Assembly: GCA_049317805.1 (NCBI GenBank)
Contig: JBMOHO010000001.1
Coordinates: 1 to 39,943, forward strand
From: Saprospiraceae bacterium
GTDB lineage: Bacteria > Bacteroidota > Bacteroidia > Chitinophagales > Saprospiraceae
DNA length: 39,943 nt
Direction of reading: 5' to 3'
Part shown: positions 28,535 to 31,239 of the stretch, piece by piece
Layout of the letters: each line of letters opens with the position of its first letter
Numbering within the stretch: position 1 is the stretch's first letter
Notes under the pieces: model-generated
Databases searched by the model: none
What the model saw: the letters and a program-made list of their open reading frames with translations, nothing else
Told to the model about the DNA's origin: nothing
Program-made: the position numbers and the translations under genes

Positions 28535-31239
28535 TAACCGAAAAAAAACAACATCACCGCCATTTAAAAAGCCCGTTCAAGCTTTTGGATGCGTATGAAC
28601 TGACCGATTACGATGTGTTTTTTGGCCGGGAAATGGAGAAAAGGGAGTTGTATGATTTGGTTACCCAAAATCGAATCACCTTTGTCTATGGCCCCTCCGG
28701 AACAGGCAAAACCAGCCTCATTCAATGCGGGCTTGCCGGCCGGTTCGACGCATCTGACTGGTTTCCCATTTTTATAAGAAGGGGTAACGATTTTAATGCT
28801 TCGCTTCAACACGAGCTGGCTAAGCTGCTGCCCCCTGAAGCGCCCTTTAATAGAAATTTTTCAGATTCCATCCGGTATTTATTCAACACCTACTTGCGTC
28901 CTATTTATTTGATTTTTGATCAGTTTGAAGAAGTATTTATCCTTGGCGATAACCAACATGAACAGCATAATTTCTATGTTACCCTGACCAATTTATTAAA
29001 CGATAACCTGCCTTGCCGAATAATACTAATACTTCGAGAGGAATATTTTGGCCATTTAAACCAACTTGAAAAAAAAATACCGGATTTATACCAAAGGAAA
29101 CTTCGCGTGGAACCCATGAGCCGCGAAAACCTCCGACAAGTTGTCATTAAGTCCTGCACGGCATACAACATCGTTTTTGATGCCGTAGATAGAGACGCGG
29201 ATCAGATTGTTGACAATATTTTTGCTGAACGCTTAGGCATCCACATGCCGTACGTGCAGGTATATCTCGATATGCTCTATCGCGAAGCGGCGCAGCAACA
29301 ACAGATCGACACTTTACCCTCTGCAACGGCATCCCCAAGCGTACGATTTGATCAGCATGTGATTGGCGCTGTCGGGGTTATTCAAAACGTTCTGGGTCGT
29401 TTTTTGCGGGAACAAGATGAAAACATACAACTGAATTTGATCGAAAATGGGTTAAATCCACCTGAAGACGTGGTCAAGCAGGTACTCGATGTATTTGTAA
29501 CCCAGGACGGCACAAAGCACCCTGTGCCCTACAGTCTAAACCACGAAGGCACCATCCAACTCAAAGGAAAAGGCGTCGGACTGGCCACGCACTTGAGCCC
29601 TCAGCTCCTCACGAATTGTATTTTGGAGTTGGAGCAATCCCGGATTTTGAGGCGTACGGAAGATTACATCGAATTGGCACACGACAGCCTTGCCGCCATT
29701 GTGGATCAGCAACGAAGCGCCGAACAACGTCATTTGATGGAGTTGCGCAGGCGTGTTGAGATTGGATTCAATGAGCACCGCGATTCCAACGGTACCTTCT
29801 TTTTTGATCAGGGTCAGTTGTCCCGTATTGAACCATACCAAAACAAACTCGCCCTTGAACCCGAATATGCAGACTTTCTGGAAAAAAGCAAGGCGCACAT
29901 TGCCCTGGAAGAAACCAATGAACGGGAACGCCTGACCCGTGAAATGACGCTCGTCGAAGAACGGCTTAGAGCCGAACAGGAAGCACGAATATCCGTGCAA
30001 GAAAAAATGAAGTCTGAGCTGCGATCAAGGAAAAAACAAAGCAAACTGCTTGTTGTCCTTGGATTGTTGTTTCTACTTGTAGCAGTTTCGGCATTATGGG
30101 CTATTCGCGAAAACAACAAAAACAAAAATCTATTAATAGAATTGTCAATGCTCAATATTAACAATGCCAAAGCCCACATACAAAACCTGGAATACGATGA
30201 AGCCCACCAAATCATGATGAAAACGCTTTCATTCACTACTATCCCGGACTCCGTTGCCGAAGTCGTGATGGAAACAGCGTTCTTTTACGCCGAAACAACT
30301 AAAAACACCAAACGCAGCTGGAAGATATTGGACACTTTAGCACAGGCATTAAAAAAACCAGAAATACTAGCCGGACATAATAGGGATTTGGAGGGATTCC
30401 ACCAGGTGTTGCACAAATTGAGTCCCACCCATGCTGAAGGTCTATGGAATCGGTATTTTCCTGTCATGGTTACGGTGGAAGGAGGTTCTTATACTTTAAT
30501 TGATTCGGATTATCAGGATACCACCGTAGTTTCTCTAAATACCTATCAAATCGCCAAAACGGAAGTTTCGCGTTGGCAGTATTTTCTGTACTGCAAATCA
30601 ACCGGAGTAAAGTTTCCAACCACCTGGTTATACGATGGATCAAAACCCATTACCAATATAAGCTGGTTTGACGCTTTGAAATACGCAAACTGGCTCAGTA
30701 GACGCATGAAATATACACCAGTGTATCCGGATAACTTGAATGGCAGACCATTAAATAGTACGCATGCATCCGCAGATTCAACAACTGCCCTGGATTCATT
30801 GGATATTATTCCGTACAATTCATCGGCAAATGGCTATCGTTTACCCACCGAAGCCCAGTGGGAATACGCAGCAAGTGGAGGCAAGTTGACTAAAGGATAT
30901 TTATATGCTGGCAGCAATACACTGGATGATGTTGCCTGGAATGCCTCTAATTCCAAGGGCATTTCACAACCCGTTGGAATGAAAATGCCCAATGAACTGG
31001 GCTTATACGACATGACCGGGAATGTTTGGGAGTGGTGCTGGGATTGGCATGACCGTTACAATTTTACCTCCAATGTTGACCCGATTGGACCACCTCATGG
31101 CACTACAAGGGTCATGCGTGGCGCTTCACGAGAACAATATGAAGATACATCGACTATTCATAAACGCCAAAACAACTTACCTGATTTCAAAGACAGGGGC
31201 ATTTTAGGTTTTCGGTTGGCCAGAAACGTGGAGAAATAG
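28531..31239 (+). CDS. Membrane-spanning STAND-type P-loop NTPase with coiled coil, single TM helix and C-terminal FGE-sulfatase (SUMF1-like) domain
   Basis: The N-terminus YDVFFGREMEKRELYDLV..ITFVYGPSGTGKTSLIQCGL carries Walker A (28690-28713). Walker B is YLIFDQFEE, followed by RIILILREEYFGHL and RVEPMS, the pattern of the STAND NTPases usually fused to WD40, TPR or caspase modules. A coiled coil spans aa ~455-500. The TM helix is LLVVLGLLFLLVAVSALWAI (30046-30105), preceded by RSRKKQSK. The FGE-sulfatase fold spans ~30463-31230: GGSYTL, ISWFDALKYANWLS, GYRLPTEAQWEYAASGG, GLYDMTGNVWEWCWDW, RVMRGAS and GFRLARN. Confidence 0.8.
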   Translation: MITEKKQHHRHLKSPFKLLDAYELTDYDVFFGREMEKRELYDLVTQNRITFVYGPSGTGKTSLIQCGLAGRFDASDWFPIFIRRGNDFNASLQHELAKLLPPEAPFNRNFSDSIRYLFNTYLRPIYLIFDQFEEVFILGDNQHEQHNFYVTLTNLLNDNLPCRIILILREEYFGHLNQLEKKIPDLYQRKLRVEPMSRENLRQVVIKSCTAYNIVFDAVDRDADQIVDNIFAERLGIHMPYVQVYLDMLYREAAQQQQIDTLPSATASPSVRFDQHVIGAVGVIQNVLGRFLREQDENIQLNLIENGLNPPEDVVKQVLDVFVTQDGTKHPVPYSLNHEGTIQLKGKGVGLATHLSPQLLTNCILELEQSRILRRTEDYIELAHDSLAAIVDQQRSAEQRHLMELRRRVEIGFNEHRDSNGTFFFDQGQLSRIEPYQNKLALEPEYADFLEKSKAHIALEETNERERLTREMTLVEERLRAEQEARISVQEKMKSELRSRKKQSKLLVVLGLLFLLVAVSALWAIRENNKNKNLLIELSMLNINNAKAHIQNLEYDEAHQIMMKTLSFTTIPDSVAEVVMETAFFYAETTKNTKRSWKILDTLAQALKKPEILAGHNRDLEGFHQVLHKLSPTHAEGLWNRYFPVMVTVEGGSYTLIDSDYQDTTVVSLNTYQIAKTEVSRWQYFLYCKSTGVKFPTTWLYDGSKPITNISWFDALKYANWLSRRMKYTPVYPDNLNGRPLNSTHASADSTTALDSLDIIPYNSSANGYRLPTEAQWEYAASGGKLTKGYLYAGSNTLDDVAWNASNSKGISQPVGMKMPNELGLYDMTGNVWEWCWDWHDRYNFTSNVDPIGPPHGTTRVMRGASREQYEDTSTIHKRQNNLPDFKDRGILGFRLARNVEK

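Follow-up and report, generated by a model that had tools for sequence, protein, structure and literature searches.

The window analysed here, a 39,943-nucleotide stretch of a Saprospiraceae bacterium contig (JBMOHO010000001.1, positions 1 to 39,943, forward strand; assembly GCA_049317805.1), carries a 902-aa STAND open reading frame (ORF; 28531..31239), whose 3′ portion (30046-31239) was the subject of an original prediction that a STAND NTPase may be wired across the membrane to a sensor outside the cytoplasm. We propose, with a probability of roughly 60%, that the protein is a single-pass N-in/C-out receptor with a cytoplasmic nSTAND1 switch and a periplasmic, TvpA-type lectin sensor, coupled to an upstream-encoded caspase-like protease that we designate CHAT-X, and that it serves as a defence mechanism. 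What was computed for this purpose is the architecture of the protein, the conservation of its signal-anchor, the missing catalytic residues of its sensor, its kinship with targets of diversity-generating retroelements (DGRs) and the pairing of the two genes.

The nucleotide-binding oligomerisation domain (NOD) module and the sensor are separated by a single transmembrane (TM) helix encoded by nucleotides 30046-30105 (aa 506-525, LLVVLGLLFLLVAVSALWAI). As originally noted, it follows the basic peptide RSRKKQSK and is the sole strongly hydrophobic stretch of the protein, with a Kyte-Doolittle (KD) 19-aa mean of 2.84 as against 1.13 for the next best segment elsewhere. Seven Lys/Arg residues lie within 15 aa before the helix and three within 15 aa after it, so that the window protein displays the one span of ~20 aa and the positive-inside bias of a type II single-pass protein. 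No N-terminal signal peptide was found in the window protein, and the sensor domain comes after the internal signal-anchor. Given that the NTPase needs cytoplasmic ATP and that a signal peptide is missing, N-in/C-out would be the only sensible topology.

The same segment recurs throughout the family. Among the 120 best full-length matches (31-57% identity), a hydrophobic segment lies directly after the NOD in 110, namely in 62 of the 71 with a C-terminal domain of the formylglycine-generating enzyme (FGE) type and in 48 of the 49 without it. In 102 of 111 sequences, more Lys/Arg residues precede the helix than follow it (mean 5.7 vs 2.7 per 15 residues; Wilcoxon p=6e-19). Across the family the uncharged span has a median length of 22 residues (range 17-30) and KD values up to 2.8-3.3; an RxRQR-type basic cluster lies immediately N-terminal of it, with a net charge of +3.8 vs +0.6 on the opposite side, and an aromatic belt marks its C-terminal end. 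Furthermore, aa 1-530 were searched exhaustively by HMMER against 1.84 billion representatives, which gave 933 clusters (50% identity) at E<=1e-30; of the 145 top-ranking representatives with a length of 500 aa or more, 139 had the segment, and 126 of these 139 showed the charge asymmetry. All intact nSTAND1 ORFs from species-representative genomes carried the segment as well, these genomes belonging to Saprospiraceae, Lewinellaceae, Cytophagales, Algoriphagus yeomjeoni, Chitinophaga pinensis, one Gemmatimonadaceae metagenome-assembled genome (MAG) and one Accumulibacter MAG. The recurrence of the signal-anchor lies far beyond chance, and these data support its assignment as a conserved signal-anchor with a predicted N-in/C-out orientation.

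The helix is constant, and the module after it varies among paralogues, comprising FGE, WD40, LRR, TPR and Amidase_3 domains as well as short tails; the median post-TM length is 191 aa, and many members have short tails only. In one member (P0114) the TM helix is followed by an Amidase_3 peptidoglycan amidase, and the location of its substrate outside the cytoplasm argues for a C-out orientation. The suggestion that the C-terminus faces the periplasm has thereby gained weight from the family-wide signal-anchor, the positive-inside bias and the amidase-bearing member, the topology still being a predicted one. The few TM-less relatives are missing exactly the basic cluster and the TM segment, as if a cassette, with the flanking coiled-coil and the helical-repeat/FGE module retained; the AFF(Y/W)xE motif of the stalk region is conserved, TM-less relatives included.

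Domains were assigned on both sides of the helix. In Pfam, nSTAND1 (PF20703) matched aa 15-257 at 119.5 bits (cutoff 27.1), with weaker matches to NACHT and AAA_16, and FGE-sulfatase (PF03781) matched aa 645-898 at 130.7 bits (cutoff 23.3; 9.6e-38). Both Walker motifs are intact, with G57, G59, K60, S62, D130, E133 and E134 invariant across 70 sequences; the NOD fold resembles Orc1/Cdc6-type AAA+ proteins by Foldseek, and a PDB sequence search with the NOD module returned no match. The N-terminus begins straight with the NTPase, and Pfam revealed nothing else in the cytoplasmic part that could serve as a sensor. An AlphaFold2 (AF2) model built from an alignment of 70 homologues reached a mean predicted local distance difference test (pLDDT) score of 88.7, with both globular halves confident, values of ~40 at aa 492-524 and a global predicted TM-score (pTM) of 0.58; it consists of two separate bodies joined by a TM segment that packs against neither. 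Helices at aa 444-490 and 515-551 flank the low-confidence segment and are followed by helices at 555-566, 573-588, 593-606, 620-630 and 632-642; a helical-repeat domain thus spans aa 555-642, with the FGE fold after it. The helical segment and FGE-sulfatase fold that had been read from the sequence downstream of the helix were accordingly recovered, by AF2 (helices within aa 515-642) and Pfam (aa 645-898), respectively.

We next consider what the C-terminal domain may do. As a match to this domain, the Treponema denticola protein TvpA (2Y3C) ranked first both in the PDB sequence search and in Foldseek. By sequence it scored E=2e-34, with CarF and FGEs behind it; by fold it reached E=6e-17 at 32% identity, with a target-normalised TM-score of 0.73, and FGEs (E~1e-13), PvdO, CalU17 and PorK came next. 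The copper-binding cysteine pair (C-x4-C) by which functional FGE/SUMF1 enzymes are recognised is absent: an alignment to Streptomyces coelicolor FGE (6MUJ) places a three-residue gap at the first of them and a Glu at the second, and the clade consensus holds one unrelated Cys column. The original description of the domain as cysteine-less therefore stands for the catalytic pair and for the C-terminal peptide it quoted, which is Cys-free, and fails for the domain as a whole, which contains C688 and C836, the latter at least 90% conserved in the clade. Scores of the NCBIfam equivalogs were about an order of magnitude below their cutoffs, for EgtB/OvoA/SenA (33.9/360, 22.3/400 and 34.2/420) as well as for PvdO (38.7/500), GldK (49.5/350) and GldJ (25.1/458), and so assign the domain neither to EgtB/OvoA/SenA nor to PvdO, GldK-PorK or GldJ. 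Nor did an alignment of 70 sequences reveal a conserved His or His triad in aa 526-644, such as the metal-binding triad in the N-terminal DinB-like domain of EgtB/OvoA/SenA sulfoxide synthases. The proposed comparison with FGE, EgtB and PvdO has thus turned up no overlooked catalytic residues, and an enzymatic role of the FGE/EgtB/PvdO kind was rejected on account of the missing Cys pair and the low equivalog scores. The domain is probably a non-catalytic, lectin-like binding module, and the preference for binding over catalysis expressed at the outset is borne out by the absent pair, the low equivalog scores, the match to TvpA and the DGR variable repeat of a homologue described below.

The closest relatives of aa 526-902 outside STANDs provide a further indication of where such a domain works. 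They are FGE-only proteins of 450-650 aa from Treponema, Cloacimonadota, Bacteroidales and similar groups, some with dockerin or Flg_new repeats, and signal-peptide-like N-termini were present in 78 of 114 complete ones, 19 of these 78 with a lipobox. These export signals suggest that the FGE subfamily normally resides outside the cytoplasm.

Kinship with DGR targets, which the original prediction did not mention, was most evident in a homologue (P0005, locus L002/L003) that is 43% identical and shares the CHAT-X / nSTAND1-TM-FGE arrangement of the window. P0005 is directly followed by bAvd and reverse transcriptase (RT) genes, and the final ~125 nt of its gene are matched by a template repeat (TR) that is rich in AAC and lies 247 nt downstream; in the 86-nt core, the variable repeat (VR) and the TR are 77% identical, with 16 of 20 mismatches at template adenines. 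Judged by its sequence, P0005 is a textbook case of a genuine DGR target. Aligned with its VR, the C-terminal end of the window domain falls where the variability of the clade is concentrated: per-column entropy exceeds 3 bits at positions 868-873, 878, 880-883, 885-886, 888 and 890-892, set within an invariant or near-invariant scaffold of R860, R863, G864, R879, P884, G893, F894 and R895. The region that would hold the active site is the most variable part of the FGE-like domain, and aa 866-892 is the hypervariable surface of the clade, predicted to bind the ligand. The window domain displays the TvpA-type C-type-lectin (CLec) fold together with the VR scaffold (RxxRGGSW...R...P...GFR). The L002 locus also encodes a second FGE protein, EAD11-nSTAND5-FGE (1180 aa), which has no TM segment and whose C-terminus does not match the P0005 TR; L002 would thus pair a membrane-spanning STAND sensor with a cytoplasmic one.

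The window copy itself showed no sign of ongoing diversification. A sensitive blastn repeat search detected no repeat of 30801-31260 in the whole 40-kb window, and neither RVT nor bAvd was found among the window ORFs or by tblastn; the possibility that the window copy is an active cis DGR target was rejected, as there is no TR, RT or Avd within 40 kb. A 98%-identical variant (P0121) differs at six positions, none of them in aa 866-892, and the identical strain in metagenome run X2 showed no change in this segment. Metagenome contigs at this site were in fragments, and motifs of paralogous FGE domains confounded them; the one usable comparison was that with P0121, and these sparse data showed no population hypervariation confined to the VR. 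The window copy is best described as an apparently non-diversified, or no longer diversified, member of the family, although a trans-acting DGR may lie elsewhere in the source genome.

The partner gene, which likewise went unmentioned in the original prediction, overlaps the STAND gene by four nucleotides, is translationally coupled to it and encodes CHAT-X. Its CHAT head carries a His/Cys dyad that is at least 90% conserved (H71 and C107; 68 sequences) and most closely resembles the oligomerisation-activated SAVED-CHAT filament 8TL0 in Foldseek, followed by MALT1 and caspases; the AF2 model of CHAT-X was confident (pLDDT 89, pTM 0.88). The C-terminal part of ~380 aa, the X module, matched no Pfam family, and the Foldseek matches covered the CHAT head only; 140 homologues of the X module were detectable, nearly all of them CHAT-headed. 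Irrespective of the type of ectodomain, CHAT-X immediately precedes nSTAND1-TM genes, in most cases with an identical 4-bp overlap, at L001, L002/3, L004 (twice), L006, L007, L009, L012-L015, L018, L035 and L087; among these, L006 has a WD40 ectodomain, L087 an amidase, and L035 comes from Chitinophaga. At L005, the X module is fused to EAD11 in place of CHAT, a fusion that would recruit an effector tagged with EAD11. The X module is presumed to be an adaptor from CHAT to STAND. At L001 (11108-18799), the cassette has the setting of a defence island: it abuts a type I restriction-modification system among whose genes GmrSD and an AAA_15/DUF4276 pair are interspersed. L004 (1589-10682) holds two tandem CHAT-X / nSTAND1-TM-FGE pairs side by side with transposase genes after them, suggesting paralogue expansion and mobility of the cassette.

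On these grounds, we envisage the following course of events. A ligand in the envelope or periplasm, which could be a component of a phage or other invader or a product of envelope damage, would bind the variable lectin surface. The membrane would keep the sensor out of reach of the NOD, so that ligand-driven clustering and/or a rearrangement transmitted through the helix would bring about activation. The cytoplasmic NOD modules would then oligomerise at the membrane in an ATP-dependent manner, which would bring the CHAT heads together and activate them by proximity, in an apoptosome-type or SAVED-CHAT-type manner, and proteolysis of cellular targets would lead to growth arrest or cell death. 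The actual topology, the ligand, the contact between NOD and CHAT-X, the mode of activation and the role in defence are the parts of this scheme that we infer. More tentatively, and with some doubt, we extend it to this large and mostly Bacteroidota family of 900 or more clusters (50% identity), whose members might be transmembrane immune receptors resembling NOD-like receptors (NLRs) that sense invaders at the envelope. In such a scheme, a swappable and sometimes DGR-hypermutated periplasmic domain would detect invaders before or during genome entry, and the signal would cross the inner membrane so that the NOD forms a membrane-bound 'apoptosome' and CHAT-X becomes activated.

Several observations weigh against this proposal. 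WD40 and TPR domains, the classic cytoplasmic sensors of STANDs, are also found after the TM helix, which is unusual. Approximately 4-8% of the relatives are TM-less yet carry the same sensor module; since they keep it, the sensor can also work in the cytoplasm, and activation may not need a membrane. A comparison of cysteine columns, intended to reveal the compartment, did not set TM-bearing apart from TM-less members, as both keep C836 and the C874 column. The window copy, moreover, deviates from the scaffold (G865A, W867R and loss of the Cys874 column), and these deviations, together with the lack of a DGR in the window, imply that the gene could be a drifting copy. Finally, the STAND protein matched no PADLOC defence model, giving P-loop-level matches only (E>=4e-4).

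Other explanations deal with parts of these findings differently. Although we consider it unlikely, the protein may be a transmembrane receptor with no part in defence, which reads an environmental, cell-cell or kin-recognition cue in the envelope of filamentous or social Bacteroidota and controls development or regulated proteolysis instead of anti-phage suicide. STAND clades change between roles in defence and roles outside it (PMC13581612), and in the interpretation of Roux 2021 (PMC8144416) DGR targets anchored in the membrane bind substrates, cells or particles outside the cell; the missing PADLOC match, the concentration of the family in Saprospiraceae and Lewinellaceae, groups with many filamentous members, and the many paralogues and tandem copies per genome are consistent with this idea. 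However, the caspase-like protease partner is as found in conflict systems, one homologue (L001) sits in a defence island, EAD11, DGRs and effector swapping typify the conflict systems that Kaur et al. described, and the sensor surface is hypervariable. Improbable in our view is the reverse direction of signalling, in which a cytoplasmic STAND senses and the periplasmic module acts as an envelope effector or anchor, for example by binding or modifying cell-wall glycans. The member with a peptidoglycan amidase, a lytic enzyme typical of effectors, the many short post-TM tails and the first listing of the FGE-sulfatase domain (FGS) among 'effector' domains (Kaur 2020, PMC7159879) speak for it; in contrast, the FGE domain is devoid of catalytic residues, the diversification of the homologue by a DGR and the hypervariable surface fit an antigen-receptor role, the cytoplasmic side offers no other candidate sensor, and a separate protease effector is already encoded upstream.

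That the whole protein, lectin domain included, is cytoplasmic, with a helix that is no membrane span or only a peripheral anchor, would accord with the description of FGS in STAND systems as intracellular invader sensors (Kaur 2021, PMC8195603), with the sensor shared by TM-less relatives, and with WD40 and TPR domains, usually cytoplasmic in STANDs, following the helix in paralogues. We regard it as highly improbable, given the charge-flanked, uncharged span of 20-22 residues with its high KD values, strong positive-inside statistics and aromatic belt; AF2 packs the helix against no domain, and a single helix of such length cannot make a re-entrant hairpin. Least probable of all, and very unlikely, is a C-terminal domain that has enzymatic activity of the FGE/EgtB/PvdO superfamily, for instance as an oxidase in the periplasm: homologues are named 'SUMF1/EgtB/PvdO family nonheme iron enzyme' in databases and the fold matches FGEs, but both copper-binding cysteines and the His triad of the preceding helical region are missing, the equivalog scores for EgtB, PvdO, SenA and GldK are far too low, the best match is the non-enzymatic TvpA, and the would-be active-site region is the most variable one.

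The components of such a receptor and the general idea are already known from the literature. Kaur et al. (eLife 2021, PMC8195603) defined nSTAND1 and described STAND-FGS proteins as intracellular, lectin-like invader sensors with N-terminal effector-associated domains (EADs) or effectors, and an earlier paper (Kaur et al., eLife 2020, PMC7159879) connected FGS domains with both DGRs and TvpA. Periplasmic sensing by STANDs has so far been no more than a passing suggestion. Dore et al. (PNAS 2024, PMC10907252) reported DGR hypermutation of STAND-CLec targets, with sensors predicted in the cytoplasm or periplasm and one NACHT target predicted to be periplasmic. The C-termini of bacterial NACHT proteins include FGS and TM segments, also combined (Kibby et al. 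preprint, 10.1101/2022.07.19.500537), and most cellular DGR targets were inferred to be anchored in the membrane and to bind substrates outside the cell (Roux et al. 2021, PMC8144416). A 2026 survey of bacterial STANDs (PMC13581612) shows FGE-sulfatase sensors and frames recognition as taking place inside cells, with membranes unmentioned. The clade-wide design of NOD, signal-anchor and swappable ectodomain, the modular TM cassette and the CHAT-X partner appear to be undescribed in the searchable literature.

Compared with the nSTAND1/NACHT-FGS systems (PMC8195603, PMC7159879), the window protein shares the nSTAND1 clade and a C-terminal FGS/FGE-sulfatase lectin-fold domain proposed to sense invaders, and its family shares the caspase-family proteases, the EADs, the occasional DGRs and the several paralogues per genome. 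Those systems are, however, intracellular and bear EADs or effectors at the N-terminus of the NTPase, whereas the window NTPase has no N-terminal domain, and its family has a signal-anchor between NOD and sensor and reaches its effector through the CHAT-X gene. The 'antigen sensors' of the DGR-diversified STAND-CLec type (PMC10907252) likewise combine a STAND (nSTAND1 or NACHT) with a C-terminal C-type lectin, and P0005 is such a DGR target. The sensors of multicellular bacteria bear a VR, while the window gene has neither TR, RT nor Avd within 40 kb nor strain-level VR variation; their hosts are Thiohalocapsa and cyanobacteria rather than Bacteroidota; and the combination of a periplasmic CLec, a TM segment and a cytoplasmic NOD, one predicted case in PMC10907252, is predicted to be a constant of the present family. 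TvpA (2Y3C) resembles the window domain in its FGE-type C-type-lectin fold, its C-terminal variable surface, its non-catalytic nature and its extracytoplasmic location (predicted for the window), but is a stand-alone surface lipoprotein with an active DGR, whereas the window domain is tethered by a TM segment to an NTPase and has no DGR. Avs1-7 and bNACHT (PMC13581612; 10.1101/2022.07.19.500537) also consist of an effector, a switch that oligomerises in an NTP-dependent manner and a variable sensor, with abortive infection as the likely outcome; they are soluble, bind phage proteins in the cytoplasm, and have sensors that contact the NOD. Unlike them, the window protein has a sensor predicted to lie across the membrane, an effector on a separate protein and no PADLOC match. 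Bacterial PASTA/FGE-domain Ser/Thr kinases, plant receptor-like kinases (RLKs) and animal Toll-like receptors (TLRs) are single-pass proteins with an outside ligand-binding domain of the LRR, lectin or PASTA type and undergo ligand-induced oligomerisation. They signal by a kinase or TIR domain, whereas the window protein would signal by a STAND NTPase and, by analogy, could join a TLR/RLK-like topology to NLR-like switching.

To our knowledge, all experimentally characterised STAND/NLR sensors, bacterial and eukaryotic, meet their ligand in the compartment of the NOD, which the sensor autoinhibits by contact, and the joining of TLR/RLK-type outside sensing to NLR-type switching has not been demonstrated for any STAND that we know of. 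If the proposed topology is true, the membrane between sensor and NOD would call for a different activation logic, based on clustering or helix-transmitted signalling, and bacteria would couple extracytoplasmic recognition to NLR-type programmed responses in a prokaryotic fusion of the two modes. Since some members are DGR-hypermutated, the proteins of this family would be candidates for 'adaptive-like' antigen receptors at the surface or in the periplasm, and the conserved CHAT-X partner, with its presumed adaptor role, would define a new adaptor module. Cultured relatives exist in Chitinophaga pinensis and Algoriphagus yeomjeoni.

Table 1 Features of the CHAT-X/STAND cassette and related elements; positions refer to the window unless a locus is named.
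Feature	Position	Strand	Basis
CHAT-X gene, 580 aa	26792..28534	+	ORF; 4-bp overlap (ATGA) of stop with STAND start
CHAT (caspase-like) protease head; His/Cys dyad SGHAG H71, LNGCST C107	26792..27391	+	Pfam CHAT 3.2e-08
X module: helical domain aa ~220-433 and beta-rich domain aa ~434-560	27392..28531	+	AF2
nSTAND1-TM-FGE gene, 902 aa	28531..31239	+	ORF call, Pfam, AF2
NOD module, predicted cytoplasmic: nSTAND1 NTPase and helical/winged-helix parts, aa 15-440	28573..29850	+	Pfam PF20703
Walker A GPSGTGKTS, aa 54-62	28690-28716	+
Walker B IYLIFDQFEE (LIFDQFEE = aa 127-134)	28903-28932	+
Juxtamembrane helix, long and charged, aa 444-497	29860..30045 (with basic cluster)	+	AF2 helix H444-490
Basic cluster RSRKKQSK, aa 498-505	30022-30045	+	Kept as RxRQR in clade
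Single transmembrane signal-anchor, aa 506-525, predicted N-in/C-out	30046..30105	+	Hydropathy, conservation, charge bias
Stalk helix and helical-repeat domain, predicted periplasmic, aa 526-644	30106..30462	+	AF2 helices
FGE-sulfatase / C-type-lectin-fold domain, TvpA-like non-catalytic type, aa 645-898	30463..31224	+	Pfam, PDB sequence match, Foldseek
DGR-variable-repeat-equivalent segment, aa 866-892	31126..31206	+	Column entropy, alignment with VR of homologue P0005
EAD11-CHAT gene, 289 aa, downstream	31295..32164	+	Pfam EAD11 1.9e-17 and CHAT; PADLOC chat 3e-18
Complete DGR cassette (VR, TR, bAvd, RT) next to P0005	L002 8657-9035 and 9196-14646

Downstream of the STAND gene lies an EAD11-CHAT gene, which is possibly an extra recruited effector or part of a neighbouring system. 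Within the window, EAD11 was found only on this protein; in relatives it is fused to the X module (L005) and to nSTAND5-FGE (L002). Coupling through matching EADs on NTPase and effector was not observed, as the STAND protein has no N-terminal EAD, and the X module of CHAT-X appears to provide the coupling instead. Nothing specific to CHAT-X and STAND was found in PADLOC or PHROGs. Upstream, a strong terminator-like hairpin (26381-26419, +; 16-bp stem and T-run) sits between an AraC-family gene (25684..26196) and the CHAT-X/STAND operon, suggesting that the two-gene cassette starts its own transcription unit; a sigma-70 promoter/terminator scan gave nothing above chance, its model not covering Bacteroidota promoters.

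The window also holds caspase, subtilase, PIN and second CHAT genes. An S8 subtilase (17264..18718, +; PADLOC 'subtilase' match) is directly followed by a TPR-CHAT protein of 1002 aa (18742..21750, +), and the two (17264-21750) resemble a further conflict-type pair built on proteases. The EAD11-CHAT gene has as its immediate downstream neighbour a PIN_3 protein (32086..32601, −), which is overlapped by a small upstream ORF (32520..32807) in a toxin-antitoxin-like arrangement (32086-32807). A 1147-aa protein (34096-37542, −) combines an N-terminal Peptidase_C14 caspase domain (PADLOC 'caspase' 1.4e-24) with a DUF7379-like region, a 247-aa protein (14230-14976, −) has a HATPase_c_4 (RecG-C-like) domain and matches PADLOC models of pAgo-associated SIR2-PNTD (E 4e-14), and 23376-24929 (−) is predicted to encode an AAA-ATPase_like and PD-(D/E)XK (PDDEXK_9) protein.

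Repeats were noted at two further places. A 110-nt tandem repeat of 2.8 copies with 98% identity (33741-34047) lies in a low-GC stretch (33001-34000; GC 0.34 vs about 0.5 elsewhere); this region had no Rfam match, and the ORFs across it look spurious. A type IX secretion system (T9SS) sorting domain was present among the window proteins and, like the homologues, points to a Saprospiraceae-like member of Bacteroidota as the source, and a near-palindrome of GGAATGC heptad repeats spans 38120-38241, with 58-nt arms that are 79% complementary and 6 nt apart.

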